Below the pieces are notes generated by a model. The model saw nothing but the letters and a program-made list of their open reading frames with translations. It was not told the DNA's origin and did no database searches. DNA of 64,000 bases from an uncultured Bacteroidales bacterium (GTDB lineage: Bacteria; Bacteroidota; Bacteroidia; Bacteroidales; F082). Location: assembly GCA_905236635.1 (NCBI GenBank), contig CAJOCJ010000005.1, forward strand, positions 98,045 through 162,044, read 5' to 3'. Below, one piece after another: positions 8,193 through 57,094 of this stretch; position 1 is the stretch's first letter; each line of letters starts with the position of its first letter. A program made the position numbers and the translations under genes.

Positions 8193-8194
8193 AT

Positions 8195-9607: not shown

Positions 9608-9631
9608 CGAAATAATGACTATCATTTAACG

Positions 9632-9704
9632 ATTATTGGTGCCATTTGCAGAAATACGACTTACCACAGGGTACTGAGAGTATTTCGAAAATGGCACTAA
9701 TAAT
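9632..9704. repeat. long imperfect hairpin just downstream of gltS (about 23 bp stem, 22-nt loop)
   Basis: The left arm ATTATTGGTGCCATTTGCAGAAATAC (9632-9657) pairs with the right arm GTATTTCGAAAATGGCACTAATAAT (9680-9704). No U-run follows. The loop plus right arm is repeated at 18567-18600. Confidence 0.6.
9662..9695 (+). repeat. 34-nt intergenic repeat, copy 1
   Basis: TACCACAGGGTACTGAGAGTATTTCGAAAATGGC matches 18567-18600 at 32 of 34 positions. Confidence 0.85.
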
Positions 9705-9752
9705 TTGTAAAAAATTCAATGAAATTTTTGTTTTTTATTTTAAAAAATATAT

Positions 9753-9760
9753 TATATTTG
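9753..9760 (+). promoter_or_regulatory. Bacteroidetes sigma-A -7 box (TAnnTTTG)
   Basis: TATATTTG lies 77 nt upstream of the kamE ATG. Confidence 0.55.
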
Positions 9761-9837
9761 CAAACATGATAAAGGTGTAACGGCTTTTATCATATCTTGT
9801 ATTGTAACTAATTGATAAAGAGCAATTTATATTATAT

Positions 9838-10626
9838 ATGAGCGAAGGATTATATTCGATGGAAGTCAAGGATTTCGACAAAACCTTGGATCTTACTAAA
9901 ATCAAACCGTATGGCGATACCATGAATGACGGCAAGACTCAGCTGAGTTTCACCTTGCCGGTGCCATGTGGTGCTGAAGCTGTCGAGGCAGCGAAACAAC
10001 TCCTCAAGACTATGGGATTCGAGAACCCTATCGTGGTGTATTACAAAGAGTTAACCCCTGGATTTACTTTCTTCAACTGCTACGGAAGCTGCACTCACAC
10101 CGTGAACTACAGCACTATATACGTGCCGAAAGTCGAGTCGAACACCATGGACATGTACGAGACCGACCAATATATCAAAGAAAACATCGGCCGTAAGATT
10201 GTGGTTGTCGGCGCTTCAACAGGCACTGACGCTCACACCGTGGGTATCGACGCCATCATGAACATGAAGGGCTACGCCGGTCATTACGGACTTGAGCGTT
10301 ACGAGATGATCGAGGCATACAACCTCGGTTCACAGGTGCCGAATGAGGAGTTTATAGCAAAAGGCGTTGAGCTTCATGCCGACGCGTTGCTGGTCTCGCA
10401 GACAGTTACACAGAAAGACGTCCACATCAAGAATATGACCGAATTCATCGAGCTGATGGAGGCAGAGGGCTTGCGTGATAAGATGATATGCTGCTGCGGT
10501 GGCGCTCGTATCACTCACGAACTCGCCAAAGAGCTCGGCTTCGACGCCGGTTTCGGAATGAACACCTACGCCGATGACGTGGCATCATTCATCGTCCAAG
10601 AGATGGTAAAACGTGGAGTGAAATAA
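9838..10626 (+). CDS. kamE: lysine 5,6-aminomutase beta subunit (B12-binding)
   Basis: The 262-aa product is near-colinear with my memory of Clostridium sticklandii KamE (SxGLYSME..KPYGDTMNDGK.QLSFTLP..., IGRKIVVVGASTGTDAHTVGIDAIMNMKGYAGHYGLERYEM, LLVSQTVTQK). It contains the DxHxxG base-off B12 motif. Confidence 0.9.
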   Translation: MSEGLYSMEVKDFDKTLDLTKIKPYGDTMNDGKTQLSFTLPVPCGAEAVEAAKQLLKTMGFENPIVVYYKELTPGFTFFNCYGSCTHTVNYSTIYVPKVESNTMDMYETDQYIKENIGRKIVVVGASTGTDAHTVGIDAIMNMKGYAGHYGLERYEMIEAYNLGSQVPNEEFIAKGVELHADALLVSQTVTQKDVHIKNMTEFIELMEAEGLRDKMICCCGGARITHELAKELGFDAGFGMNTYADDVASFIVQEMVKRGVK

Positions 10627-10664
10627 AAAGAATAATTCAAAATTAACAATTAAAATATTGCAAT

Positions 10665-11324
10665 ATGGAAAAAAACGAAATTAGAGAAGTTATCGCAAGA
10701 CGTGCTGCAAAAGAGCTGCATGACGGCGATGTTGTGAATTTGGGTATCGGTCTGCCGACAATGATTCCTAACTATCTTCCAGAAGGCGTGTCAGTGACAC
10801 TGCAGACAGAGAACGGCGCTATGGGTATGGGCCCAACACCAGAGGAAGGCAAGGAAGACAAGAACCTCATCAACGCTGGCGGTGGCTACATCACATTGAC
10901 ACCAGGCGCTTGCACATTCGACTCAGCAACATCATTCGCAATCATCCGTGGCGGCCACGTCAACGTGTCGTTCCTCGGTGCATTGCAGGTCGATGAGAAG
11001 GGCAACCTCGCCAACTGGATCATCCCTGGCAAGATGGCTCCTGGCATGGGCGGCGCAATGGACCTCGTAGTCGGTGCAAAACGCGTGATCCTCACCATGG
11101 AACACACACAGAAGGGCGCTCCTAAGATCTTGAAGGAATGCACACTGCCTCTCACAGCAGCAGGTCAGGTCAACATGATCATCACTGAGATGGGTGTGAT
11201 GGAAATCACAAAAGAAGGTATCGTCCTCACCGAAATTCATCCTGAATTCACAGTGGAGCAGGTGCAGGCCGCTACAGAGGCTAAACTCATCATCAGCCCG
11301 AACCTCAAATCGATGCTTGACTAA
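10665..11324 (+). CDS. atoA: 3-oxoacid / acetoacetate:butyrate CoA-transferase subunit B
   Basis: 219 aa with a family I CoA-transferase beta subunit signature, including the catalytic Glu context LQTENG and the GMGGAMDL motif. Confidence 0.88.
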
Positions 11325-11326
11325 TC

Positions 11327-12109
11327 ATGGAATATCAATTCTTAAAAATAGAATTGCAGGACAACGGTATCGGCATCATGACGGTGTCGGCACCGAAGTC
11401 GTTGAACGCCTTGAACTCGACAGTCCTCAAGGAGATCGACCATTTCGTCAGCAACCTTGACACCAAGAAGACACGTGTCCTCATCGTCACTGGCGACGGC
11501 GAGAAGTCGTTCGTGGCTGGCGCTGACATCTCTGAGATGGTCAACCTTTACGAAAAAGAAGGCTACGAGTTCAGCAAGATAGGTGCTATCGCGTTCCGTA
11601 AGCTGGAGACGCTGCCAATCCCGGTCATCGCTGCCGTCAACGGTTTCTGCCTTGGCGGAGGCTGCGAGCTGGCGATGGCATGCGACATCCGCATCTGCTC
11701 GAACAACGCACGTTTCGGTCAGCCTGAGGTGGGACTGGGCATCACACCTGGTTTCAGCGGCACATACCGTCTGGCGAAACTCATCGGACAAGGCTATGCC
11801 AAGGAGATGATTTACACGGGCAAGGCCATCCGCGCTGACGAGGCATTGCGCATCGGATTGGTGAACGCAGTATATGAGCCAGCCGAGTTGATGGACAAGG
11901 CTATGGAGATGGCACAGAAGATGCTCAAAAATGCACCTATCGCCATCGCTCATGCAAAACGTTGCATCAACGAGAGCTACGACCTCTGCGCTGACGACGC
12001 CATCGAGCTTGAGAACGTCGCATTCGGCAAATGCTTCGCCACAGAAGACCAGAAAGAAGGCATGAAAGCATTCTTGGAGAAACGCGAGGCAACTTTTAAA
12101 GGAAAATAA
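11327..12109 (+). CDS. crt: short-chain enoyl-CoA hydratase (crotonase)
   Basis: 260 aa. Crotonase fold motifs FVAGADI and GGGCELAMACDIR, with a butyrate-operon context. Confidence 0.9.
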   Translation: MEYQFLKIELQDNGIGIMTVSAPKSLNALNSTVLKEIDHFVSNLDTKKTRVLIVTGDGEKSFVAGADISEMVNLYEKEGYEFSKIGAIAFRKLETLPIPVIAAVNGFCLGGGCELAMACDIRICSNNARFGQPEVGLGITPGFSGTYRLAKLIGQGYAKEMIYTGKAIRADEALRIGLVNAVYEPAELMDKAMEMAQKMLKNAPIAIAHAKRCINESYDLCADDAIELENVAFGKCFATEDQKEGMKAFLEKREATFKGK

Positions 12110-12132
12110 TTAACAATTAAAATTTAGATAAC

Positions 12133-12969
12133 ATGAAAGTATACGTTATTGGAACAGGTACCATGGCAAAAGGCATCGTGAAGGCTTTCGCAGCCAAGAT
12201 GCCCGTCGTCATGAAGAGCAGAACCCAGGCCAGCATCGACAAGGCAATGGGCTCAATCGCAAAAGGTTATGCAAAACTCGTCGAAAAAGGCAAGATGACC
12301 CAAGAAGCCGTTGATGCTCTGTTGAAGAACATCACCACCACCACCGATTACGCATCATTCAAAGACGCTGACCTCGTCATCGAGGCCGCTGTCGAAGAGA
12401 TGCAGCTGAAGAAAGAAGTCTTCATGGAGCTCGACAAGATCTGCAAGCCAGAAGCTATCTTCGCAACCAACTCATCATCATTGTCAATCACTGAAATCGC
12501 TGCCTGCACAACACGTCCAGCACAGTTCATCGGCATGCACTTCTTCAACCCGGCCGACAGAATGGCATTGGTGGAAGTCATCAAGGGACAGCTCACAAGC
12601 GACGAGGTGACAAAGACCATCGTTGACCTTGCCACATCAATCGGCAAGCAGCCTGTCGAGGTGAAAGAAGCCCCAGGTTTCGTCGTTAACCGCATCCTCA
12701 TCCCTATGATCAACGAGGCAGTCGGTATCTTGGCCGACGGTATCGCATCAGCAGAGGACATCGACAAGTGCATGATGCTTGGCGCCAACCATCCAATGGG
12801 ACCTCTCGCATTGGCAGACCTCATCGGAAACGATGTCAATCTCGCCATCATGGAGGTGCTTTACAACGAATTCGGCGATCCGAAATACCGCCCACATCCA
12901 CTTTTGAGAAAGATGGTGCGCGCTGGTTTGCTCGGACGTAAGACTGGTGAAGGATTTTATAAATATTAA
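12133..12969 (+). CDS. hbd: 3-hydroxybutyryl-CoA dehydrogenase
   Basis: 278 aa with an N-terminal Rossmann motif ([10 protein letters not shown]) and [15 protein letters not shown] and GRKTGEGFY motifs typical of HBD/HADH. Confidence 0.9.
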
Positions 12970-12980
12970 TTGAAAACATA

Positions 12981-14120
12981 ATGGATTTTAGCTATTCAAA
13001 GACAGAAGAATTGTTCCTGCAGATGATAAGATCATTCGCAGAGAACGAGGTCAAGCCTTTGGCAGCCGAAGTTGACGAACAGGAACGTTTCCCTATGGAG
13101 ACCGTCAAGAAGATGGCGAAATTAGGTTTGATGGGTATCCCGGTACCACGCCAGTATGGCGGCGCCGGTGGAACAGTGCAGATGTACATCATGGCTGTTG
13201 AGGAGCTCTCAAGAGTGTGCGCCACCACAGGCGTCATCCTCTCAGCTCACACATCATTGTGCATGGCACCTATCCTCGAGAACGGAACAGAAGAACAGAA
13301 GATGAAATATTTGCCGAAGCTCGCATCAGGCGAATGGATTGGCGCTTTCGGTCTCACCGAGCCTAACGCCGGCACCGACGCCGCCATGCAGCAGACAATG
13401 GCTGTTGACGCAGGCGACAAATACATCCTCAACGGTTCGAAGATTTTCATCACCAACGCAGCATACGCCGACGTGTTCATCGTCATGGCAATGACCGACA
13501 AGAGCAAAGGCACCAAGGGCATCTCGGCATTCATCGTCGAGAAAGGCTTCAAGGGCTTCAGCATCGGCAAGAAAGAGTTGAAGATGGGTATCCGTGGCTC
13601 AGCGACATGCGAGCTTATCTTCGAAAACTGCGAAGTGCCGAAGGAGAACCTCCTCGGTCAGCTCGGCAAGGGCTTCACTATCGCTATGAAGACCCTCGAC
13701 GGCGGTCGTATCGGTATCGCTTCACAGGCTCTCGGCATCGCTCAAGGTGCAATGGATGAGACGGTGAAATACACCAAAGAACGTAAGCAGTTCGGAAAGT
13801 CTATCGCACAGTTCCAGAACACACAGTTCCAGATGGCCGACCTCAAGACAAAGGTCGAGGCAGCCCGTCTGCTCGTCAGAAGCGCTGCATGGAAGAAAGA
13901 CAAAGGTCTTCCATATTCAGCCGACGCAGCAATGGCGAAACTCTTCGCAGCCGAGACAGCAATGGAAGTGACTACAAAAGCAGTCCAGTTCCACGGCGGC
14001 TACGGCTACACACGTGAATATCCGGTCGAACGCATGATGCGCGACGCCAAGATTACCGAGATCTACGAAGGTACATCAGAGGTTCAGAGAATGGTTATCG
14101 CTGGTCATTTATTTAAATAG
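12981..14120 (+). CDS. bcd: butyryl-CoA dehydrogenase (Etf-dependent acyl-CoA dehydrogenase)
   Basis: 379 aa with ACAD signatures (GLTEPNAGTDA, QFHGGYGY, IYEGTSEVQRMVI). It sits directly upstream of etfBA. Confidence 0.92.
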   Translation: MDFSYSKTEELFLQMIRSFAENEVKPLAAEVDEQERFPMETVKKMAKLGLMGIPVPRQYGGAGGTVQMYIMAVEELSRVCATTGVILSAHTSLCMAPILENGTEEQKMKYLPKLASGEWIGAFGLTEPNAGTDAAMQQTMAVDAGDKYILNGSKIFITNAAYADVFIVMAMTDKSKGTKGISAFIVEKGFKGFSIGKKELKMGIRGSATCELIFENCEVPKENLLGQLGKGFTIAMKTLDGGRIGIASQALGIAQGAMDETVKYTKERKQFGKSIAQFQNTQFQMADLKTKVEAARLLVRSAAWKKDKGLPYSADAAMAKLFAAETAMEVTTKAVQFHGGYGYTREYPVERMMRDAKITEIYEGTSEVQRMVIAGHLFK

Positions 14121-14132
14121 GAGGGAAGGATT

Positions 14133-14915
14133 ATGAATATTATAGTTTGTATTAAGCAAGTACCTGATACAACCGAAATCAAAATCGATCCGGTAAAGAA
14201 CACCCTTATCCGTGAAGGCGTTCCGAGCATCATGAACCCGGACGACAAGGGCGGTCTCGAACTCGCTCTCCGTATGAAAGACAAATACGGCGCTAACGTC
14301 ACAGTTATCACAATGGGACCTCCGCAAGCTGACCTCATCTTGAGAGAAGCTTTCGCTATGGGCGTTGACAGAGCTATCTTGTTGAGCGACAGAAAGTTCG
14401 CTGGCGCAGATACCTTGGCAACATCATACGCATTGGCAGGCGCCATCAAGACTTTGGACTATGACGTGATCATCGCTGGCCGTCAGGCTATCGATGGTGA
14501 CACAGCACAGGTCGGTCCTGAGATGGCTGAACACCTCGGATTACCACAGGTTTCATACGTCATCGACGCTGAACGCGAAAAGAACGGCAACTTCATCGTG
14601 AAGAAAGAGAACGAAGACAGCGTCCAGACTCTCGAAGTCGAAGGAAAATGCGTCCTCACAGTCCTCGCATCGGCATTCGAGGCACGTTACATGACAGTCG
14701 CCGGCATCGTCGACGCTTACGACAAGGAAGTTGAAGTTTGGGGCGCCGACAAACTCGATGTCGACGAGAACAAACTCGGTCTGAAAGGCTCACCGACAAA
14801 GGTGTGGCAGTCATTCCCGAAACAGCTTAAGGCTCCGGGCGAAGTGTTCGAAGTCAGCGAAGAAGAAGCTGTGGAAATCATCGTTAAGAAACTCAAAGAA
14901 AAACATTTAATCTAA
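14133..14915 (+). CDS. etfB: electron transfer flavoprotein beta subunit
   Basis: 260 aa. MNIIVCIKQVPDT start and the EtfB family pattern. Preceded by AGGAGG at 14119-14124. Confidence 0.92.
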   Translation: MNIIVCIKQVPDTTEIKIDPVKNTLIREGVPSIMNPDDKGGLELALRMKDKYGANVTVITMGPPQADLILREAFAMGVDRAILLSDRKFAGADTLATSYALAGAIKTLDYDVIIAGRQAIDGDTAQVGPEMAEHLGLPQVSYVIDAEREKNGNFIVKKENEDSVQTLEVEGKCVLTVLASAFEARYMTVAGIVDAYDKEVEVWGADKLDVDENKLGLKGSPTKVWQSFPKQLKAPGEVFEVSEEEAVEIIVKKLKEKHLI

Positions 14916-14925
14916 AAGTAAAGCC

Positions 14926-15945
14926 ATGGATATTAAAGATTACAAAAACGTTTATGTGTTCGCAGAACAGCGCGGAGGTACGATTCAATCCGTAGCTTAC
15001 GAACTTTTAGGTAAGGCTCGCGACCTCGCTGACGCTCTCGGCGAGAAAGTCGTGGCAATGTTACTCGGTCATAATATCAAAGATCAGGCTCAGAGCCTCA
15101 TCGAGATGGGTGCTGACGAAGTACTCGTCGCCGACTGCCCAGAGCTCAAGGATTACTTGACAGAGCAGTACTCACAGGTTGTATATCAGATGATTACAGC
15201 TGGCTGCCCAAGCATCGTGCTTTACGGCGCTACCACCATCGGCCGTGACCTCGCACCACGTATCGCTTCAAGACTCAAGACCGGTCTGACAGCAGACTGC
15301 ACCAAGCTTGAAATCGGTATCGTCGAGGAGACAGGCGAGAAGCAGTTCCGCTCGACACGTCCTGCTTTCGGCGGCAACCTGATGGCTACCATCCTTTGCC
15401 CTAACACACGTCCTCAGATGTCGACAGTGCGTCCTGGTGTGATGCAGAAACGCGTCCGCGAGGCTGGCAGAAAAGGCACCATCACAATGTTTGCCCCTAA
15501 ATTCGACACAAGTAAGTTCAAAGTCAAAGTCATCGAGACCAAGATGAATTGCAAGTGCGCTGACGACATCGCCGATGCCAAGATTTTGGTGTCAGGTGGC
15601 CGTGGCGTTCATGACAAGGAAGGATTCAACAAACTTCAGGCTTTGGCTGACGTCCTCGGCGGCATGGTGTCATCATCACGTGCCATGGTCGACGCAGGTA
15701 TCATGGATCACTGCTTCCAGGTCGGTCAGACAGGTAAGACGGTGCGTCCGGCCCTTTACATGGCATGCGGTATCTCAGGCGCTATCCAGCACCTCGCAGG
15801 TATGGAAGAGTCAGACTTCATCATCGCCATCAACAAGGACAAATACGCACCTATCTTCTCAGCCGCTGACCTCGGCATCGTCGGTGACCTCCACAAGATC
15901 GTCCCGATGTTGACAGAGAGACTGAAGAAAGAAGTGGAAAAATAA
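14926..15945 (+). CDS. etfA: electron transfer flavoprotein alpha subunit
   Basis: 339 aa. The C-terminal FAD-binding region carries the EtfA signature (LYMACGISGAIQHLAGM...IIAINKD). Confidence 0.92.
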   Translation: MDIKDYKNVYVFAEQRGGTIQSVAYELLGKARDLADALGEKVVAMLLGHNIKDQAQSLIEMGADEVLVADCPELKDYLTEQYSQVVYQMITAGCPSIVLYGATTIGRDLAPRIASRLKTGLTADCTKLEIGIVEETGEKQFRSTRPAFGGNLMATILCPNTRPQMSTVRPGVMQKRVREAGRKGTITMFAPKFDTSKFKVKVIETKMNCKCADDIADAKILVSGGRGVHDKEGFNKLQALADVLGGMVSSSRAMVDAGIMDHCFQVGQTGKTVRPALYMACGISGAIQHLAGMEESDFIIAINKDKYAPIFSAADLGIVGDLHKIVPMLTERLKKEVEK

Positions 15946-26943: not shown

Positions 26944-29484
26944 ATGGATCAGAAGTTTTCACCAAGGGTTCAGGATATTATGCAGCATAGCCGTGAAGAG
27001 GCTGTGAATATGGGAAATCCGTATATCGGACTGGAGCACATTTTCCTTGGTATTGTTGATGATAAGGACAGTAACGCAGTCCAGATTTTGAGGAATCTGG
27101 GACTTGATATAGACGCGTTCCGCCAGAAACTTGAGGCGTCGGTTAAGACCAATAATGTGGTTTTGGGGAATACCGACAACCTCCCTTTGACCAAACAGGC
27201 CGAGCGTGCGCTTAAGTTCACATATATCGTGGCAAAAGATTTTAACAGCGAACTGGTGGCATCGGAACATCTGATGCTCGCAATCCTTCATGATGACAAT
27301 AATATTGTATCACAACGTCTTGAATATGAAGGAATTACATTTAACAAATATAAAAAAGAAGTTGAAAAGCTGACGCCAAACTATCCGGCTAACTGCAAAA
27401 ATGAGGATTTGACTCCGGAACCGAAAGACACGTTTATGGATGAGGACGAGGATGAGGAAACTCCTATCAAGACTACTGATAATCAGCAGAAAAAAGGAAA
27501 TACCAAGTCAAATACTCCTATTCTCGACAATTTCGGTCGTGATTTGACAAAAGCCGCCGAGGAAGGACGCCTTGACCCTATCGTCGGACGTGAGAAAGAA
27601 TTAGAAAGAATAGCCCAGATATTGAGCCGCCGTAAAAAGAATAACCCTATCCTCATCGGTGAGCCAGGCGTCGGAAAGTCAGCAATTGCTGAAGGTCTGG
27701 CACAGAGGATTGTGGAGCACAGGGTGTCGCGCACCTTGTACAACAAACGTATCATAGTGCTTGACCTTGGCTCTGTCGTGGCGGGAACGAAATACAGAGG
27801 ACAGTTTGAGGAGCGCATGAAAGGCATCCTCAACGAACTTGAGAAGAACCCCGACATCATCATCTTCATCGATGAGATCCACAATATCGTGGGAGCAGGC
27901 AACGCCAACGGTTCTCTCGACGCCTCTAACATGTTCAAGCCGGCCTTGGCCCGCGGCGTGCTGCAGTGCATAGGCGCAACCACATTGGACGAGTATCGCC
28001 AATATATAGAGAAAGACGGCGCCCTTGAACGTCGTTTCCAGAAAATACTGGTGGAGCCGACGAGTCCAGAAGAGACAATCCAGATTCTTACGAACATCAA
28101 AGGCCGCTATGAAGACCATCATCTGGTGAGATATTCGCCCGAAGCCATCGAGGCTTGTGTGAAGCTCACCAACCGTTATATCTCTGACCGCCATCTGCCT
28201 GACAAAGCCATCGACGCTTTGGACGAGGCTGGCGCCCGAGTGCATATTGGAAGCATCCACGTGCCAACCGAGATTATAGAGATGGAACACGCTCTCGAAG
28301 AGATTCGTCAAAACAAGAAACTCGCTATAAAAGAACAGCGTTTCGAGGACGCCGGACAACTCCGTGACCAGGAAAAGACGCTGGCCGAGAAACTCGAAAA
28401 CGCAAAGAGAGAATGGGACAAAGAGACTAACGGCCATCGTGAGACGGTGACAGAGCAAAACGTCGCTGAAGTCGTGGCTATGATGACAGGCGTGCCAGTA
28501 CAGCGCATCGCTCAGAACGAAGGCGACCGCCTGATGAGCATGGAATCGGAGCTCGCAGGCACCGTCATCGGACAGGATGAGGCGATAAAGAACGTGGTGA
28601 AGGCTATCAGAAGAAACAGAGCCGGACTGAAAGACCCTAACAGACCAATCGGAAGCTTCATCTTTCTCGGCCCTACCGGCGTCGGAAAGACCTATCTGGC
28701 AAAGGTTTTAGCAAAATATCTCTTCGACTCGGAAGATGCTTTGATAAGAATAGACATGAGCGAATACATGGAGAAATTCGCTGTTTCGAGACTCGTGGGA
28801 GCGCCTCCAGGATACGTCGGTTACGAAGAGGGCGGCCAGCTGACAGAAAAAGTTCGCCGTAAGCCCTACTCTATCGTGCTTTTGGACGAGATTGAGAAGG
28901 CACATCCTGACGTGTTCCATATCTTGTTACAGGTATTGGACGACGGCCAACTCACCGACTCTCTCGGCAGAAAGGTCGATTTCAAGAACACCATCGTCAT
29001 TATGACATCCAACATAGGTTCACGTCAGTTGAAGGACTTCGGACAAGGCGTAGGATTCGGCACACAGGCGAAGAAAGACTCGAAGGATACCGACAGTCGC
29101 GCCATCATCGAAAATGCCTTAAAACGCCAATTTGCGCCCGAATTCCTTAACAGAATCGACGAGGTGATTGTCTTCGACTCGCTGAACAAGGAAAGCATCA
29201 ACAAAATTATTGACATCGAGTTGAAGAACGTGTTTGAGCGCACCAAAGAGATGGGCTATGAACTGGAAATCACAGAAAAAGCTCGTAATTTCATCGTTGA
29301 AAAAGGCTGGGACGAACAATATGGAGCACGTCCGCTGAAGCGCGCCATCCAGAAATATGTGGAAGATGTCCTCGCCGAGGAAATCATCAAGAACAACCCA
29401 GAAAAAGGCGCAAAGATTGTCATTGATTACGACGACGACAAAAAGGAAATTTTCATCAATGAATCTAAAGGACAAGATCAATAA
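26944..29484 (+). CDS. clpC: ATP-dependent Clp protease ATP-binding subunit (ClpC-type)
   Basis: 846 aa with Clp_N repeats, two AAA+ modules (GEPGVGKSA, GPTGVGKT) and a short UVR-like middle domain (EQRFEDAGQLRDQEK). The short middle domain favours ClpC over ClpB. Confidence 0.9.
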   Translation: MDQKFSPRVQDIMQHSREEAVNMGNPYIGLEHIFLGIVDDKDSNAVQILRNLGLDIDAFRQKLEASVKTNNVVLGNTDNLPLTKQAERALKFTYIVAKDFNSELVASEHLMLAILHDDNNIVSQRLEYEGITFNKYKKEVEKLTPNYPANCKNEDLTPEPKDTFMDEDEDEETPIKTTDNQQKKGNTKSNTPILDNFGRDLTKAAEEGRLDPIVGREKELERIAQILSRRKKNNPILIGEPGVGKSAIAEGLAQRIVEHRVSRTLYNKRIIVLDLGSVVAGTKYRGQFEERMKGILNELEKNPDIIIFIDEIHNIVGAGNANGSLDASNMFKPALARGVLQCIGATTLDEYRQYIEKDGALERRFQKILVEPTSPEETIQILTNIKGRYEDHHLVRYSPEAIEACVKLTNRYISDRHLPDKAIDALDEAGARVHIGSIHVPTEIIEMEHALEEIRQNKKLAIKEQRFEDAGQLRDQEKTLAEKLENAKREWDKETNGHRETVTEQNVAEVVAMMTGVPVQRIAQNEGDRLMSMESELAGTVIGQDEAIKNVVKAIRRNRAGLKDPNRPIGSFIFLGPTGVGKTYLAKVLAKYLFDSEDALIRIDMSEYMEKFAVSRLVGAPPGYVGYEEGGQLTEKVRRKPYSIVLLDEIEKAHPDVFHILLQVLDDGQLTDSLGRKVDFKNTIVIMTSNIGSRQLKDFGQGVGFGTQAKKDSKDTDSRAIIENALKRQFAPEFLNRIDEVIVFDSLNKESINKIIDIELKNVFERTKEMGYELEITEKARNFIVEKGWDEQYGARPLKRAIQKYVEDVLAEEIIKNNPEKGAKIVIDYDDDKKEIFINESKGQDQ

Positions 29485-30928
29485 TAGATTTTTCAAGGTT
29501 ATAACCGCCGCGTCGCGTGAATTGGGATACGATTCATATATTGTTGGTGGCTATGTACGTGATTTGTTGTTGAAACGCCAATCCAATGATATTGATGTTG
29601 TTACGGTCGGCAGCGGAATAGAGTTGGCCAAGAAGACCGCCTCGTTGCTGCCTGGCAAGAAGCATGTGAAATATTACGGCAGGTTCGGCACTGCGATGAT
29701 CAACGTGGAAGGGCATGAGATAGAGTTTGTGGGAGCACGGAAAGAGTCGTATACCTCCGACAGCCGCAAGCCCACCTGCGAGAACGGCACCTTGGAAGAC
29801 GACCAGAACCGTCGTGACTTCACCATCAACGCGATGGCTATCTCATTGAACGAGAGAGACTTTGGCGAGCTCGTCGACCCGTTTAACGGAGTTCAAGACC
29901 TTGAAGATAAGATAATCCGTACGCCTTTAGATCCCGACATCACCTATTCCGACGACCCGTTACGCATGATGCGCGCCATCAGATTTGCAACACAGCTCCA
30001 TTTCATGATTGAGGCGGAATCGTTCGAGGCGATAAGACGTAACGCTCAGAGAATCAAGATAATATCGATGGAACGCGTCACCGAGGAGATGAACAAAATC
30101 ATCATGTCGGACGTGCCGAACATCGGTTTCAAACTCCTTGACAAGAGCGGTCTGATGCCTATCATCTTCCCGCAGATGGCGGCGTTGAAAGGCGTTGAGA
30201 TACAGGATGGTAAAGGACATAAAGACAACTTCTATCACACCTTGGAAGTGCTTGATAATGTGGCGAATAGCGGTGGAGACCTCTGGCTCAGATGGGCAGC
30301 GGTGCTGCACGACATCGCCAAGCCATTGACAAAGAGATTTGAGAAAGAAGCCGGCTGGACGTTCCACGGACACGAGGTGAAAGGCGCGAAGATGGTCCAT
30401 AAGATTTTCGCCAACTTCAAGCTTCCTCTCAACGAGAAGATGAAATATGTGGAGAAACTGGTTTATCTTCACCTCCGCCCTATCGTGCTGGCACAAGACA
30501 TCGTAACTGATTCAGCAGTAAGGCGTTTGCTCTTCGATGCAGGCGACGACATCGACGACCTGATGACATTATGCGATGCCGATATTACATCGAAAAATGA
30601 AGAGAAAAAGGCTCGTTTCCATAATAATTTCCAGATTGTACGCCAGAAATTGAAGGAGATTGAAGCGAAAGACCACCTGCGCAACTGGCAGCCACCAGTC
30701 GATGGCAAGGTCATCATGGAAACCTTCGGCATCCCCGAGAGCCGTGATGTCGGCGTGATCAAAACCGCCATCCGAGAAGCTATTCTTGATGGCATCATCG
30801 GCAACAATTTCGCTGAAGCATATCAATTTATGAAGGAAGAAGGCGCCAAGCTAGGCTTAAAAGTCGTGAAAGAGATTACCGAGCCTGTCGAAGTCAAGTC
30901 AAACGGACCAGTTCCAACGAAACAATAA
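29459..30928 (+). CDS. cca: CCA-adding tRNA nucleotidyltransferase / poly(A) polymerase-family protein with an HD domain
   Basis: GGYVRDLLL head-domain motif, RDFTINA, and an HD motif (LHDIAKP). I chose ATG 29459 (MNLKDKINNRFF). The ORF-track start at 29357 would overlap clpC by 128 nt. Confidence 0.8.
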   Translation: MNLKDKINNRFFKVITAASRELGYDSYIVGGYVRDLLLKRQSNDIDVVTVGSGIELAKKTASLLPGKKHVKYYGRFGTAMINVEGHEIEFVGARKESYTSDSRKPTCENGTLEDDQNRRDFTINAMAISLNERDFGELVDPFNGVQDLEDKIIRTPLDPDITYSDDPLRMMRAIRFATQLHFMIEAESFEAIRRNAQRIKIISMERVTEEMNKIIMSDVPNIGFKLLDKSGLMPIIFPQMAALKGVEIQDGKGHKDNFYHTLEVLDNVANSGGDLWLRWAAVLHDIAKPLTKRFEKEAGWTFHGHEVKGAKMVHKIFANFKLPLNEKMKYVEKLVYLHLRPIVLAQDIVTDSAVRRLLFDAGDDIDDLMTLCDADITSKNEEKKARFHNNFQIVRQKLKEIEAKDHLRNWQPPVDGKVIMETFGIPESRDVGVIKTAIREAILDGIIGNNFAEAYQFMKEEGAKLGLKVVKEITEPVEVKSNGPVPTKQ

Positions 30929-52162: not shown

Positions 52163-53896
52163 TCAGTTGATTATCTGACTCTCTACCACTTCTGCTATAT
52201 CTTTCACCTTAACAGGCGATTTTCTTGCGAAGGTCTTGAGGCACAACGGACATGCTGTCACAATCTCATCAGGATTGTTGAACATCAAGTCGTTGACTGA
52301 GTTTTCAGTAATCTCATCACGTTCTTTTTGAGTCAGGTTGAAGCTACCCAAGCTGCCGCCGCAGCATATGCTGAGTTCTTTTTCTGACTTGGCTTTGCAG
52401 AGATTGCCAACGTTTTCTAGCACTTCACGCGGCTCGTCATACACACCGAAGGCTCGTCCGAGCTCACATGGGTCGTGATAGACGTAGTTGACATCATTTT
52501 TGTTGACCTTCAGCTTGCCGCTCTTGACAAGCTCGTCGATATACTGCGTATGATGTTGAATCTCAATGCCTTCCAAGTGGTATTCCTCTTTAAACACCTT
52601 ATAGCATATTGGGCAAGAAAGCACTAGCTTTGTAGTGCCCGATTGCTTTATCAGCTCGGTGTTTTTCTCAATCATAGCCTGCGCTTCTGCTGTCTTGCCG
52701 CTCAAAAGCATCGGACGTCCGCAGCAGATGCCACCGTTCTCGTCAAGGAACTGGTACTCCTCGCCCGCCGCTGTCATTATCTTCTTCATCGCGCGCATGA
52801 TCTTTGGCGTAAGCTGGGTCATGCAGCCTGCAAAATATAGGACTTTCGAGGATTTCTCCGCTTCGGTCGAAATGACGTCGAGATATGAATGGTCGCTATG
52901 GATCTCATACGGAACAGCGGCGCGCTGGCTCATCTTGATGTCGCAGGATTCGATGCTTACCGGACATACTTCCACGCACTTGCCGCATTGCATACATGTC
53001 TCCGCGATGCGTTGGGCTTCTTCCTTATCGCCATTTCTCAGCTTCTTCATGAAATAAGCCGAGGTGTTGCCGCTGTTTTTGTCGTTGACACTCATCGGGC
53101 AAGCGTCGATGCAAAGTCCGCACGATGGGCAGGAATAAATCTGTGCCAAGGCGTAACCTTTTCTTGGGTCGCTCGGCTTGATGCCAGCATGACGCAACAA
53201 TATGAACAACGCCTCCGTCGGGATGTGCATGTAACGTGTAAACGGCAGCATACACATAAATATCAGCAGGTCGATGGAATAGAGCCACCAAAATGCCATG
53301 ATGTTGGTCTTCTCGGCTATGAGTCGGAACGGGAAGATGGTCCACAAAGCGAAACGGATCATATTGTCGGCAAATCCGAACTTCGTGACGCGCTTCACTC
53401 CCACTATCTTCGAATGAATCTTCTTCACCACGGCGATGAGGATACCGCTGATTATCATGAGGAGGAAGAAATCCATCAGGAACGCGAACACCGGGGTTTC
53501 CGTTGCGAAGAATTTGTAGAAAATCGGGTAATAGAAGTTGGTGAAAGTACGCGCCATGCCTTCTACCTCAACGCCTTGCAATGGTTTTAATGTGAACAGC
53601 ATGATATGGCCTATCACGATAATCATAAACCAGCCGAAGGCTATGGCAGAGTGCATATAACCCAGCACCGGGTTGCGTTTCCATATCTTCACATGGAAGA
53701 GGCAGTCGCCAAACAGGTCGCGTATGTTGGCCCACGCCGTCTTTGGTGTCACCAGCGAGCGCCAGAACTTCTTACGGTCGTCTTTCGGCAGCTGAGCTAT
53801 TACTCTTATAAGTCCCACGACGCAGTACGTCAGCACGAAAGCCATGCCTAGTACAAACGGGAGCACAAAAGGATGAAATATTATCTGTGAGTTCAT
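52163..53896 (-). CDS. membrane-anchored Fe-S protein: NarI/DsrM/HdrE-like TM domain + 2x[4Fe-4S] + two CCG domains (HdrD/DsrK-like)
   Basis: 577 aa. The N-terminal roughly 240 aa have 5-6 hydrophobic helices with conserved His (YMHSAIAFGW, FTRYMHIP). These are followed by CPSCGLCIDACP and CMQCGKCVEVCP, then ICCGRP...CPIC and ICCGGS...CPLC. Confidence 0.85.
   Translation of the reverse strand: MNSQIIFHPFVLPFVLGMAFVLTYCVVGLIRVIAQLPKDDRKKFWRSLVTPKTAWANIRDLFGDCLFHVKIWKRNPVLGYMHSAIAFGWFMIIVIGHIMLFTLKPLQGVEVEGMARTFTNFYYPIFYKFFATETPVFAFLMDFFLLMIISGILIAVVKKIHSKIVGVKRVTKFGFADNMIRFALWTIFPFRLIAEKTNIMAFWWLYSIDLLIFMCMLPFTRYMHIPTEALFILLRHAGIKPSDPRKGYALAQIYSCPSCGLCIDACPMSVNDKNSGNTSAYFMKKLRNGDKEEAQRIAETCMQCGKCVEVCPVSIESCDIKMSQRAAVPYEIHSDHSYLDVISTEAEKSSKVLYFAGCMTQLTPKIMRAMKKIMTAAGEEYQFLDENGGICCGRPMLLSGKTAEAQAMIEKNTELIKQSGTTKLVLSCPICYKVFKEEYHLEGIEIQHHTQYIDELVKSGKLKVNKNDVNYVYHDPCELGRAFGVYDEPREVLENVGNLCKAKSEKELSICCGGSLGSFNLTQKERDEITENSVNDLMFNNPDEIVTACPLCLKTFARKSPVKVKDIAEVVESQIIN
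52848..52877. repeat. short form of the palindromic repeat arm inside the HdrD-like CDS (in frame)
   Basis: GAGGATTTCTCCGCTTCGGTCGAAATGACG encodes VISTEAEKSS in the linker between the ferredoxin and CCG domains. Confidence 0.75.
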
Positions 53897-54204
53897 CGTG
53901 TAATGTCTAACAAAATCTTACGAATATTGATGCCACGCGGACAGACGAGGGTGCATTTGCCGCACAGCATGCAACGTTGAATCATTTTCTTTGCCTCGTC
54001 TTCCTTGCCTCTTTGAAGCATCAGAAGGAGTCGGCGGAAGCTCATCTCGGTGAAGTTACCCGCCGTGCAAGTCGCTGTGCATGAGCCACATGCGATGCAG
54101 GTATTGATGTCAGGATTGGTCTCCTTCAGACGGTTGAACGTCGTCAGGTCCACGCTATCCATCTTGACGTGCGAGCTTGGTGATAAACAAAAACCGAAAT
54201 CCAT
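53893..54204 (-). CDS. small 2x[4Fe-4S] ferredoxin-like protein (HdrC-like)
   Basis: 103 aa. CIACGSCTATC and CMLCGKCTLVCP motifs. ATGA overlap with the downstream gene. Confidence 0.8.
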   Translation of the reverse strand: MDFGFCLSPSSHVKMDSVDLTTFNRLKETNPDINTCIACGSCTATCTAGNFTEMSFRRLLLMLQRGKEDEAKKMIQRCMLCGKCTLVCPRGINIRKILLDITR

Positions 54205-54206
54205 AA

Positions 54207-55217
54207 CTACTTGTTGTTTATGTAGTTAAACACTTGAGTTGCCACTGAGCGTGCTTCGCCTATGGTGTCAGGCAGTGACTTCGGGGCGGTGCAGGCGCCC
54301 GCGACGAACACGCCGTCCTGTGCTGTGGTGTTCATCCCGAGATACATGTCCTGGTTCTGCATGAAACCATCAGTGTTGTTTGCAACACCAAGTTTCTGTT
54401 GTATAGCGTCGATGCTCTTGTTTTTCTCCATGGCACACATCAAAACCAGCACGTCTAGGGTCATCTTCAGAGGCTTGCCGAACAGGGTGTCTTCCGCCTT
54501 GATGACGAGCTTGCCGTCCATGTCTTCCGACACCTCGCACACACGGCCTCGCACACATTTCACGTCGAAGTCTTTCTGTGTCTTCAGATAAAGGTCTTCG
54601 TAACCTGGTCCGAACATTCGCAGATCCATGTAGAAGGTGTAGACCTCAGCATCCGGGAACACTTCCTTAATCTCGCATGCCTGCTTCAAGGCCGTGGTGC
54701 AGCACACCTTTGAGCAATAGGTGTTGCAAACCTTCACGTCGCGGGCGCCGACACAATGCACGAAACCGATCTTCTTAGGGTTGTTGATACGTGCGTCATG
54801 ACCTGTCCTGAAAAACTTCTCCAGTTCGACGCTGGTCATCACATTATTATATATGCCGTAGCCGTATTCCTGTTTTCTCTCTGCTTTAAAAATGTCAAAA
54901 CCTGTAGCAAGAATCACCGCCTTGGCATCGATCTTTTCGTTATTGCTTAAAGTGGCATGAAAACCATTGTCATCTCTCTGAATATCAGTGACTTCAGTAT
55001 TAAGATAGGTCTTCACGTCTTTCACCTGGTTGAGCATCTTCTCGACCACGTCCTTGGCAGGATGAAACGCTGGGAACAGCCTGTCCCACTGGGCGACATG
55101 ACCGCCGAGTTGTTCGCTTTTTTCAACAATTATAGGTGTCAGCCCCATCTTTTGCAATTGTGTGGCTGCTTCCATTCCGGCGGCTCCACCGCCAATAATC
55201 AATATATTTTCTTTCAT
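54207..55217 (-). CDS. short HdrA-like FAD/[4Fe-4S] oxidoreductase
   Basis: Rossmann motif ILIIGGGAAG. HCVGARDVKVCNTYCSKVCC (54699-54755) fits the HdrA CxGxRDx6-8CSxxCC signature. ATG 55217 preferred to TTG 55232. Confidence 0.82.
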   Translation of the reverse strand: MKENILIIGGGAAGMEAATQLQKMGLTPIIVEKSEQLGGHVAQWDRLFPAFHPAKDVVEKMLNQVKDVKTYLNTEVTDIQRDDNGFHATLSNNEKIDAKAVILATGFDIFKAERKQEYGYGIYNNVMTSVELEKFFRTGHDARINNPKKIGFVHCVGARDVKVCNTYCSKVCCTTALKQACEIKEVFPDAEVYTFYMDLRMFGPGYEDLYLKTQKDFDVKCVRGRVCEVSEDMDGKLVIKAEDTLFGKPLKMTLDVLVLMCAMEKNKSIDAIQQKLGVANNTDGFMQNQDMYLGMNTTAQDGVFVAGACTAPKSLPDTIGEARSVATQVFNYINNK

Positions 55218-55228
55218 AACGTTGATTT

Positions 55229-56299
55229 TCAAACTGATTTAATATGCATTGGACATTGCGGCATGCCTAAGTCTTTGCCATTCAAGCCTTGATATTTCTT
55301 TTTCGGGTCGTATGGGATTCCCATCTTCTCGAGCAGCGGCTCTATCGCTACCTGGTGCACCTGAAGTCCGAGGTCCCACGGGTCGTAACCCATCACCAAG
55401 CCAGCCACCTCTTCGTATGTTAGAGCCGGAATTCCGTAGCCATCCTTGCCGTAGGTCTTGCCGGTCTGCTCTGCTATGACATATTGCCATCTGTCAAGGA
55501 AATAAGGGCATCCTGGACAGTTGGTGATGATCAAATCTGGCTCGTAAGGCTCCATTGACTCGAATTTCTTATGGGTGTTCGACTCCGAATATCCACGGTT
55601 CGCCTGCACGAAATACTGACGGAAGCCGAATCCGCAGCACTGACGACGTTCTGGGTAGTCGACGACTTCGCCGCCCCATGCCTCGACCATTCCGACGAGC
55701 ACATGTGGGTATTCAGCGCCACCGAAGCCTTTTGAGGGGAACATCTTAGAATAGTGGCATCCGATATGCTCGACCACCTTCAAAGGCTTGCCAGTCTTGA
55801 CATTCACGAGCGGGAACTTCATCTGTTTTGCGATGTCGAACCTGAATTTGTAAATCATATCGCTTGCGTGAGCGAGATATTTCGGTTTGGCGAATTCTTT
55901 CTTGCACGAATCCCAGAGATACTGGCGGATCTTTGCCTCCAGTTCAGGAAATTCGTGCCATGTCTCAAGCGTCTCGGTGTAAAGTCCGAATGAAGTGATG
56001 CATGAGCAGACATAGTTTTCGTAGCCGCTCTCCTTCATCAACGCAAACTGGCGCGCTATGATGGTCATTGCTGTCTCCTGCGGGATGGAATCGCTGTGAT
56101 ATGCAATGCCGCCGCAGGTTGTGTGATATGCGTTCTCATAGAAGTCTTTTCCGAGCTTGTTTCTCACGATGTCGAGAAAAGTCACCTCCGAGGCAGGCCA
56201 AAAGCCTTGACGGATGCAGCTCCTCACGTAAAAATAATGGTCATCGGGAATGTCTTTCTGATAATCAGCCCAGATCTTCTGTTTTCCTTCAACTATCAT
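55229..56299 (-). CDS. HdrB-like CCG-domain protein
   Basis: 356 aa with Cys-rich CCG-type motifs (HTTCGG, RRQCCGFG, NCPGCP). Confidence 0.8.
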   Translation of the reverse strand: MIVEGKQKIWADYQKDIPDDHYFYVRSCIRQGFWPASEVTFLDIVRNKLGKDFYENAYHTTCGGIAYHSDSIPQETAMTIIARQFALMKESGYENYVCSCITSFGLYTETLETWHEFPELEAKIRQYLWDSCKKEFAKPKYLAHASDMIYKFRFDIAKQMKFPLVNVKTGKPLKVVEHIGCHYSKMFPSKGFGGAEYPHVLVGMVEAWGGEVVDYPERRQCCGFGFRQYFVQANRGYSESNTHKKFESMEPYEPDLIITNCPGCPYFLDRWQYVIAEQTGKTYGKDGYGIPALTYEEVAGLVMGYDPWDLGLQVHQVAIEPLLEKMGIPYDPKKKYQGLNGKDLGMPQCPMHIKSV

Positions 56300-56329
56300 A
56301 TTTTATATTTAATATTCAAAATTAAAATT

Positions 56330-57043
56330 CTACTCGTTCAGGTGTTTTTCCGCATTGTTTGTGGTATAAACACTCATAAAATATTCTTCGTCCGACATAT
56401 TCTGCCTGACAGCCTCTTCGTGAGCGTCGCCGAGTACCTGCTCCATCAGCTCGGTGGCACCTGTCACGTCGAAAATCTTCTTCAGCTGGTCGAGACTCTC
56501 CTTAGGAATCTTACGCAATCCGCCCGGGCCGTCGCCGTCGAGGTTGGACCCCAGACGTGCATGGATGTCGTCAAGATGCTCGTTGATCCATTTCCCGACA
56601 GGACCGAATTCCTTATGTGTCTCATATTCAAAAGTGCGAGGATAAACGCAATAACCGTAGTTTAAGATATTGCTGCACAAGTCTTTCACTACGATATACT
56701 GCTGTTTCCCTTTCTCAGAAAGCATGTACAGTCCGGTTCGCATTGCGAGTTTGCGAAGCGACATGATCACCAAGCCAGGCGCATTGGCACGCGGACAACG
56801 GGTCACACACGACATACATTCGCCGCAGTACCAAATTTGGTCGCCTTTCAGAAGCTCTTCTATCTCTTCCTCTTTCTTGCGAGCCACAATGTTTACTATG
56901 TTTTTCGGGTTGTATTTGTAGAATTCCGCAGCCGGACATACAGCAGTGCACACACCACAGTTCATGCAGGCCTTCATGCCCTCTTTTATCCTGTAATCCT
57001 TATACAATTCCTCAACAAGTTGTCCTTTAAATCTATATTCCAT
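56330..57043 (-). CDS. HdrC-like 2x[4Fe-4S] protein
   Basis: CMNCGVCTAVCP and CGECMSCVTRCP motifs. I chose ATG 57043 because the -7 box at 57087-57094 lies only 5 nt from the ORF-track start at 57082. Confidence 0.8.
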   Translation of the reverse strand: MEYRFKGQLVEELYKDYRIKEGMKACMNCGVCTAVCPAAEFYKYNPKNIVNIVARKKEEEIEELLKGDQIWYCGECMSCVTRCPRANAPGLVIMSLRKLAMRTGLYMLSEKGKQQYIVVKDLCSNILNYGYCVYPRTFEYETHKEFGPVGKWINEHLDDIHARLGSNLDGDGPGGLRKIPKESLDQLKKIFDVTGATELMEQVLGDAHEEAVRQNMSDEEYFMSVYTTNNAEKHLNE

Positions 57044-57086
57044 AAAAGTAAAAATGTATATAGTAAATCCTTTTACTAACAAAATG

Positions 57087-57094
57087 CAAAGATA
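57087..57094 (-). promoter_or_regulatory. -7 box (TAnnTTTG) for the Hdr-like operon
   Basis: The reverse complement is TATCTTTG, 43 nt upstream of ATG 57043. Confidence 0.6.

Follow-up and report, generated by a model that had tools for sequence, protein, structure and literature searches.

A membrane-anchored, sHdr-related operon of uncultured Bacteroidales that may supply sulfite for cysteate synthesis

Five genes on the minus strand (57043..52163) of the window, by which we mean the whole 64,000-nucleotide stretch of uncultured Bacteroidales DNA analysed here, very probably encode a membrane-anchored, quinone-linked complex resembling heterodisulfide reductase (Hdr). In related lineages the operon adjoins genes for cysteate synthase, MarR and SulP or FNT proteins, which points to sulfite metabolism. 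Because it is co-transcribed there with cysteate synthase, is related to the sHdr system of sulfur oxidisers and appears to be wired to a quinone-reducing membrane anchor, the complex would most simply serve to supply sulfite for cysteate, the sulfonolipid precursor, and we put the probability of this role at roughly 45%.

The five open reading frames (ORFs) are co-oriented and nearly contiguous, with intergenic gaps of 30, 11 and 2 nt and, between the ferredoxin and fusion genes, an ATGA overlap (53893-53896). The first gene (56330..57043) encodes an HdrC1-like protein of 237 aa from its ATG, which carries two CxxCxxCxxxCP [4Fe-4S] motifs (Pfam Fer4_8/9/17) and a C-terminal extension, and is followed by the gene for a 356-aa HdrB1-like protein (55229..56299) with one complete C-terminal CCG motif and a degenerate N-terminal CCG-like site. 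The third product, a short HdrA-like flavoprotein of 336 aa from ATG (54207..55217), combines a flavin adenine dinucleotide (FAD) Rossmann fold with one [4Fe-4S] site; an alternative TTG start at 55232 would give 341 aa, and relatives favour the 336-aa ATG start. Next come a 103-aa 2x[4Fe-4S] ferredoxin (53893..54204), which matches Pfam Fer4 families and resembles the cluster-binding half of HdrC, and a 577-aa membrane fusion protein (52163..53896) with a membrane domain of about five helices, two [4Fe-4S] motifs and two complete CCG motifs. In gene order the Pfam domains are Fer4, CCG, Pyr_redox_2, Fer4, and Fer4 with two CCG. The motifs CMNCGVCTAVCP, CGECMSCVTRCP, RRQCCGFG, NCPGCP and HCVGARDVKVCNTYCSKVCC are present in the translations together with the two CCG motifs of the fusion, and the five-gene arrangement, spacing and overlap put forward in the original prediction, which had been made from the letters alone, all proved to be in place.

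A candidate -7-type promoter box, TATCTTTG (57087..57094, minus strand), lies 44 nt 5' of the first ATG. It fits the Bacteroides -7 box consensus, TAnnTTTG, and a promoter role would follow from that consensus. A sigma-70-type promoter and terminator scan gave sites not above those of shuffled sequence and is uninformative for a Bacteroidales genome.

None of the five subunits reached a curated NCBIfam cut-off, which places the proteins outside any characterised enzyme. Their best models were methanogen HdrC, HdrB and HdrA, with scores between a quarter and a third of those required (HdrA 251 against 1100 bits, HdrB 138 against 450, HdrC 87 against 350). Across the models of each family, the HdrC-like protein scored 65-87 bits where the HdrC cut-offs are 160-350, the HdrB-like protein 110-138 bits where the HdrB cut-offs are 345-450, and the top matches of the 103-aa ferredoxin were again HdrC models, at 35-40 bits. 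A genuine methanogen Hdr was rejected on these scores and on the size of the HdrA, 336 aa with one cluster site; methanogen HdrA has about 650 aa and six Fe-S clusters. The operon resembles methanogen HdrABC/HdrDE in the CxGxRDx(6-8)CSxxCC site of its HdrA and in the fusion, which joins domains in the order HdrE plus HdrD, whereas the flavoprotein is without the N-terminal, inserted and C-terminal ferredoxin domains, the N-terminal CCG of B is degenerate, and the host is a bacterium with no methanogenesis context. TfrAB, LutABC, GlpABC and glycolate oxidase were discarded as well (TfrB 111 against 385 bits, LdhH 100 against 800, GlpC 77 against 278, GlcF 57 against 333), as were QmoABC, DsrMK and TmcB (qmoC 45 against 300, DsrK 45 against 400, TmcB 36 against 735), and with scores so far under the curated cut-offs the subunits do stand outside GlpABC, LutABC, TfrAB, DsrK and Qmo, as had been supposed. 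QmoABC and DsrMK(JOP) offer a parallel in their HdrA-like flavoprotein and menaquinone-linked membrane heme-b/Fe-S subunit, which take part in sulfite-forming or sulfite-consuming reactions, and DsrK is itself an HdrD-like CCG protein; however, the subunit composition differs, and AprAB, DsrAB and DsrC were not among the annotated recurrent neighbour families. The expectation that the complex is undescribed also held, as no account of it was found in the literature searched on Hdr in Bacteroidales, F082, and cysteate synthase together with Hdr.

Compared with solved structures, the HdrA-like protein matches sHdrA of Hyphomicrobium denitrificans (6tjr) end to end (E 2.9e-63), and it also matches the thioredoxin-reductase-like core of methanogen HdrA, with no extra ferredoxin domains. 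Its [4Fe-4S] ligands, C160, C173, C177 and C178, are invariant in the family, and with 336 aa it has the form by which a short HdrA of the sHdr type is recognised (about 350 aa, FAD plus a single [4Fe-4S]). End-to-end alignments were likewise obtained for the HdrB-like and C-like proteins, with HdrB and HdrC structures, respectively, and the assignment of Hdr-like components including an sHdrA-type HdrA was thereby upheld. For the HdrB-like protein, which had been described as a CCG-motif protein, RRQCCGFG and NCPGCP are there, but only one CCG domain is canonical: the C-terminal motif is complete (C181, C221, C222, C261, C264), while the degenerate N-terminal site holds three to four Cys (C28, C62, C100, plus C98 in 90%). 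Eight Cys of the HdrC-like protein are invariant across 66 sequences, and so are all eight of the 103-aa ferredoxin.

Oxidation of bound sulfane sulfur to sulfite is the function ascribed to the sHdr system (PMC6067878, PMC11094781). Its type I has the composition shdrC1B1AHC2B2 and its type II shdrC1B1AHB3-etfAB-emo, with electrons proposed to reach menaquinone in type II via EtfAB and the membrane Fe-S/CCG protein EMO (PMC11094781). As a reference we used a genuine type I locus (L159), fetched via a protein 99% identical to 6tjr, in which DsrE3, C1, B1, A, H, C2, B2, a 156-aa ORF and LbpA follow one another, with TusA and SoxYZ further on. Within this locus the best partners of the window's proteins are sHdrC1, sHdrB1 and sHdrA: A is 34% identical to sHdrA over its whole length, the hidden Markov model (HMM) of its family scores sHdrA at 296 bits, and under the HMM of the C family sHdrC1 obtains 98 bits where sHdrC2 obtains 35. 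Three changes are shared by the B family and sHdrB1, namely CC to (T/S)C, N-terminal CxxC to C-x-T-S-F-G, and a C-terminal CCGFGFR, which are absent from methanogen HdrB, sHdrB2 and the window's own fusion protein; B nevertheless keeps the C-terminal CxxC lost in sHdrB1. The sHdr core order C1-B1-A is found in the window and in 71 of the 78 loci retrieved by a genome scan with the 577-aa protein as query, and the proposed echo of sHdr in the order C-B-A-(C-like)-(B/D-like) is to that extent matched. Besides this order, the likeness to sHdr extends to the short HdrA (about 340-350 aa) and to a ferredoxin-like and then a CCG module after A, and, as has been proposed for type II, electrons would reach menaquinone through a membrane Fe-S/CCG protein. 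The operon differs in that C2/B2, or B3 with EtfAB and EMO, is replaced by the 103-aa ferredoxin and one fused membrane protein, in that its hosts are strict-anaerobe-type gut and rumen Bacteroidales rather than sulfur oxidisers, and in that it is linked to an assimilatory cysteate synthase rather than to Sox and sulfur-transferase genes.

The 577-aa fusion supplies the predicted membrane anchor. Its hydropathy profile shows four to five strongly hydrophobic helices in residues 3-220, within the N-terminal 240 residues, and an AlphaFold2 model built with 32 diverse relatives reached a predicted local distance difference test (pLDDT) value of 87 and a predicted template modelling (pTM) score of 0.81. 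The only whole-length match of this model in the PDB is EtfD (E 2.5e-17, template modelling score 0.66), and its CCG half also matches LutA and HdrB; at the sequence level, too, the protein finds Mycobacterium smegmatis EtfD (9ojn), and a distant relative bears Pfam NarI-like PF02665. The helices, the superposition on EtfD and the NarI-like relative support the view, already taken in the original prediction, that the fusion is an integral membrane protein of the HdrDE/DsrMK/EtfD type. The solved structure of EtfD shows a wire in a single chain, with five helices, a bis-His heme b next to a menaquinone site, two cubanes and two CCG domains; Thr539 and His583 replace ligands of HdrB-type CCG sites, which leaves the clusters, one of them a linear [3Fe-4S], occluded and non-catalytic (PMC13083937). 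The fusion resembles EtfD (Rv0338c family) and EMO in joining about five transmembrane helices with a predicted His heme-b site, two cubanes and two CCG domains in one chain, but its identity to EtfD is 18%, it is without the long disordered C-terminal tail, and its gene is translationally coupled to the ferredoxin and short HdrA genes rather than standing beside etfAB.

Across 75 members of the fusion family, H68, H82, H224, the eight cubane-cluster Cys and the ten CCG Cys (C358, C391, C392, C428, C431; C477, C511, C512, C549, C552) are invariant. The three His fit at least one predicted bis-His heme. Since all ten CCG Cys are kept, unlike in EtfD, the two sites look like catalytic-type ones, and they could form either a second catalytic site, regenerating a thiol/disulfide carrier in the way suggested for sHdrB2, or only a relay of the EtfD kind. 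An exhaustive representative search found about 30 clusters at 50% identity with the full fusion architecture, after which scores fall to longer EtfD/EMO-like proteins. The next-nearest fusion family (676 aa; locus L163, 3-7504) lies beside genes for long HdrA-like, HdrB-like, HdrC-like, OsmC and GcvH-like proteins and a lipoate-protein ligase. The locus has the look of a further undescribed Hdr-like cluster, membrane-anchored and linked to lipoate, and as that family sits with GcvH-like and lipoate ligase genes, the fusion fold would be at home among lipoate-linked Hdr-like systems.

All 78 loci of the genome scan are metagenome-assembled Bacteroidales/Bacteroidota from rumen, gut, digesters, soil and sediment. 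All five genes in identical order are present in 71 of them; six of the others are interrupted by contig ends, and one (L072) is truly without the C and B genes. As this order is kept and the cluster-binding cysteines are invariant, we take the five to be real genes and not chance ORFs. Identity to the window goes as low as 37% in the fusion but stays at 61-98% in B, the subunit conserved best, and close homologues of the fusion are very abundant in metagenomes, numbering thousands. A three-gene form, A-ferredoxin-fusion without C and B, occurs in L072 (820-8410), L115 (6343-13046), L160 (6612-9785) and L161 (307-3480), joined to cysteate synthase in the former two and alone in the latter two, which suggests that A-ferredoxin-fusion is the minimal module and C-B an addition in most lineages. 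The 103-aa ferredoxin gene lies between A and the fusion in every related locus that reaches this position, the three-gene variants included.

In lineages whose identity to the window is 44-54%, a pyridoxal phosphate (PLP) enzyme is encoded 3' of the fusion gene on the same strand, and it is assigned to cysteate synthase by TIGR03844 (454 bits against an equivalog cut-off of 325). Of the 78 loci, seven have this gene as the next one downstream, in the same orientation, nine have MarR directly upstream and four a SulP transporter gene downstream. A reciprocal metagenome scan with an alignment of six Hdr-linked cysteate synthases gave 80 cysteate-synthase loci, where the fusion gene stands directly upstream in 35, the whole five-gene set in 28, MarR upstream in 27 and SulP downstream in 17; in the loci with more than 2 kb of upstream DNA, the fusion and cysteate synthase genes are separated by -14 to 107 nt, or by 254 nt in a single case. 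The three-gene loci L072 and L115 have the operon MarR-A-ferredoxin-fusion-(FNT)-cysteate synthase-SulP, the gene for an FNT small-anion channel being inserted between complex and cysteate synthase in L072. The FNT protein reaches the generic formate/nitrite-family cut-off only, and this family includes hydrosulfide channels. Compact operons without Hdr-like genes also occur, as MarR-FNT-cysteate synthase-SulP in six loci (L100, L101, L107, L109, L111 and L124, about 8.7-13 kb in each) and as MarR-cysteate synthase-SulP in one (L119), which suggests interchangeable routes to the sulfur substrate. In a neighbour-joining ordering, the loci linked to cysteate synthase take up most of the family's middle part. 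The original prediction had found no neighbour that defines the substrate and held that the redox couple could not be deduced; this is true of the window, but not of the related lineages in which cysteate synthase adjoins the operon.

The linkage is not simple hitch-hiking, as the other flanks vary from lineage to lineage. Plain synteny accounts for most of the recurrent neighbours, namely glmS, carAB and lysine-fermentation genes. A recurrent upstream pair of 1074 and 358 aa, considered as an RND efflux pump, was rejected as such since Pfam identifies it as CarB/CarA; carA/carB, again as plain synteny, lie upstream of MarR or cysteate synthase in L079 (2011-6378) and 21 other cysteate-synthase loci. 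Genes of kamDE-like, CoA-transferase and thiolase type, sometimes with bcd-etfBA, are found within 10 kb, downstream of cysteate synthase and on the opposite strand, in L054, L058, L059, L070, L071, L082, L084, L090, L097, L100 and L111. Families of kamDE and CoA-transferase are represented at 15 of the 80 cysteate-synthase loci, and the proximity of lysine-fermentation genes to Hdr-like and cysteate synthase genes is probably inherited synteny.

How the complex might work can be sketched from its parts, with a substrate, a direction of electron flow and a quinone partner that we infer. At its non-canonical Fe-S site, the sHdrB1-like B would oxidise sulfide-derived sulfane sulfur or a persulfide, yielding sulfite, and the electrons would pass through the two [4Fe-4S] clusters of C to the FAD and single [4Fe-4S] of the short HdrA, and from there via the 103-aa ferredoxin, the fusion cubanes and heme b to menaquinone. 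An anaerobic respiratory sink such as fumarate reductase may then re-oxidise the menaquinol, while cysteate synthase would combine the sulfite with O-phosphoserine to give cysteate, the precursor of Bacteroidota sulfonolipids. With potentials of -116 mV for HSO3-/HS- and -74 mV for menaquinone, the overall oxidation would be feasible, with a pull from the consumption of sulfite and the re-oxidation of menaquinol. It is possible, if doubtful, that anaerobic gut and rumen Bacteroidales hold in this complex a menaquinone-coupled sHdr-like enzyme that turns sulfide or sulfane sulfur into sulfite for biosynthesis and not for energy, without oxygen or LbpA/TusA/DsrE, which would be a third sHdr architecture and an assimilatory 'reverse' sulfite route.

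Several observations weigh against a role in sulfite supply. Cysteate synthase is not adjacent in the window's own 85-90% clade, in the 61-64% clade or in the deepest branches, although the 120 matches listed in a cysteate synthase profile search, all from lineages other than the F082 type, carry no information either way on that type; in the window's lineage the same function would be exerted without an adjacent cysteate synthase. The fusion gene is directly upstream in 31 of the 62 cysteate-synthase loci with more than 2 kb of upstream DNA, and this 50% is inflated and an upper estimate, because the query was built from Hdr-linked cysteate synthases. The existence of a three-gene form without C and B means that the B site cannot be the sole catalytic site, and the B profile ties sHdrB1 (110.5 bits) with methanogen HdrB (110.1 bits), with sHdrB2 at 38 bits. 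Import of sulfite by SulP or FNT would make an internal source unnecessary, and the biochemistry of all family members is predicted. In addition, tblastn (E<=0.01) with LbpA, TusA and DsrE3 of the reference locus and with E. coli TusA and GcvH as queries gave no homologue of sHdrH, LbpA, TusA or DsrE, whether within 10 kb in any of 158 loci or across the 64-kb window. LbpA and the TusA/DsrE/rhodanese sulfur transferases are invariable companions of sHdr according to the Dahl group (PMC11094781). Because these companions were not found, canonical sHdr membership was rejected, and we file the operon as an sHdr-related variant and not as an sHdr member. In the cysteate-synthase loci free of the operon, no alternative sulfite source was visible among neighbours judged by reading sequences only; by eye, these looked like polyphosphate kinase, Ppx, CTP synthase, LutB-like and other genes.

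Other chemistries have to be weighed on the same evidence. The CCG clusters of the complex could reductively cleave the S-S bond of an organic thiosulfonate (R-S-SO3-) or of thiosulfate, delivering sulfite to cysteate synthase together with sulfide or a thiol, with electrons from menaquinol and/or from a low-potential donor via the flavoprotein. Cleavage of S-S bonds by HdrB-type noncubane clusters has been demonstrated (PMC13083937), the fusion retains all ten CCG Cys like the catalytic HdrB and HdrD and unlike EtfD, a SulP oxyanion transporter that is co-operonic in 17 of 80 and 4 of 78 loci could import the substrate, and the three-gene form is still joined to cysteate synthase in L072 and L115. 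However, thiosulfate cleavage has an established E0' of about -402 mV, far below menaquinol, the operon encodes no low-potential donor module, the short HdrA is without the ferredoxin-domain clusters used for bifurcation in methanogens, and the changed motifs of B match sHdrB1, which belongs to an oxidative system; we consider such a reaction unlikely. Quite unlikely, in our view, is a menaquinone-coupled reductase of a low-molecular-weight or protein-bound disulfide, similar to HdrDE and DsrMK and not tied to sulfite in particular. Like these two, the complex has two to three complete CCG sites and an anchor of the heme-b type, which would suit such a reductase, as would the window and two large clades in which no sulfur-related neighbour is found and the three-gene form of L160 and L161 with no cysteate synthase nearby. 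Yet it leaves the recurrent operonic joining with cysteate synthase, MarR, SulP and FNT unexplained, no carrier gene (DsrC, TusA, LbpA, thioredoxin-like) recurs in the flanks, and the DsrK and TmcB models give only 35-45 bits against cut-offs of 400-735.

That EtfD is the best structural match of the fusion invites the further idea that the complex joins fermentation to the quinone pool as an electron sink or by bifurcation, in which case the fusion would act like EtfD/EMO and receive electrons from Bcd-EtfAB or from ferredoxin/NADH via the Hdr-like module. Type II sHdr clusters include etfAB-emo, the window holds bcd-etfBA and lysine-fermentation genes, and such genes lie within 10 kb of the operon in L054, L058, L059, L082, L084, L090 and L097. 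In the window, though, the etf genes are 36 kb off, on the opposite strand and in a fermentation operon of their own, and they are absent from most loci, occurring in five of the 80 cysteate-synthase loci. The CCG sites of EtfD are altered (Thr, His) and occluded, whereas the ten Cys of the operon's fusion are invariant, and the short HdrA has neither an NAD(P)H domain nor the extra clusters of bifurcating HdrA. As the linkage to cysteate synthase is left unexplained as well, we hold this link to be quite unlikely too. Turnover of a bound disulfide and a ferredoxin/NADH-quinone bifurcating link were the two functions offered in the original prediction, and given the adjacency of cysteate synthase both have less support than sulfite metabolism. 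A coenzyme-M-like sulfonate thiol made from cysteate, with the complex reducing its disulfide, would mirror the methanogen pairing of cysteate synthase and Hdr, where the former serves coenzyme M synthesis and the latter reduces the CoM heterodisulfide, and all literature found on cysteate synthase together with Hdr concerns that pairing. This idea was set aside as extremely improbable because no sulfopyruvate decarboxylase or other CoM-pathway enzyme was found among the annotated recurrent neighbour families, some families being unannotated. Moreover, cysteate synthase of Bacteroidota is known to serve sulfonolipid synthesis, with cysteate as the precursor (PMC11211663, PMC11525784).

The surroundings of the operon in the window fit the fermentative, butyrate-type Bacteroidales host that had been proposed. 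The closest relatives of the window are uncultured rumen Bacteroidales of the F082/Limimorpha type, and positions 8189-15945 hold a lysine/butyrate fermentation block with KamE-like, CoA-transferase B, crotonase, Hbd, Bcd and EtfBA genes. The lysine 5,6-aminomutase beta subunit of this block exceeds its equivalog cut-off; an alpha subunit was not found anywhere in the window by tblastn, and the ORF directly upstream of the beta gene (8189-9607, 472 aa) is weakly Glt_symporter-like. The pair etfBA belongs to this fermentation operon, 36 kb from the Hdr-like genes and on the other strand. The flanking genes of the Hdr-like operon are mnmE and glmS, as had been read from the letters, and both exceed curated cut-offs. 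The remainder of the window holds housekeeping genes only, none of them sulfur-related, among which an ORF of poly(A) polymerase/CCA-adding type (29357-30928) overlaps the end of clpB (26944-29484) by about 128 nt, its real start probably lying further downstream.

Taken from sequence relationships, the operon appears to be a previously undescribed variant of the sHdr type with a predicted chemistry. Even if the idea of sulfite supply fails, it represents a widespread and strongly conserved respiratory-type Fe-S complex for which no published description or function was found in the literature searched, and the fusion would give the recently solved EtfD fold a relative of catalytic type. The sulfonolipids made by gut Bacteroidota have immunological activity, and the first step of their synthesis requires sulfite, which is scarce and toxic in sulfide-rich anoxic habitats. 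If the complex does supply this sulfite, the missing upstream step of the sulfonolipid pathway would be found for many uncultured Bacteroidales of rumen, gut and digesters, Hdr-like sulfur oxidation could run anaerobically with menaquinone as the acceptor, and the sHdr field would gain a simpler, membrane-anchored model that works without lipoate-binding and sulfur-relay proteins.

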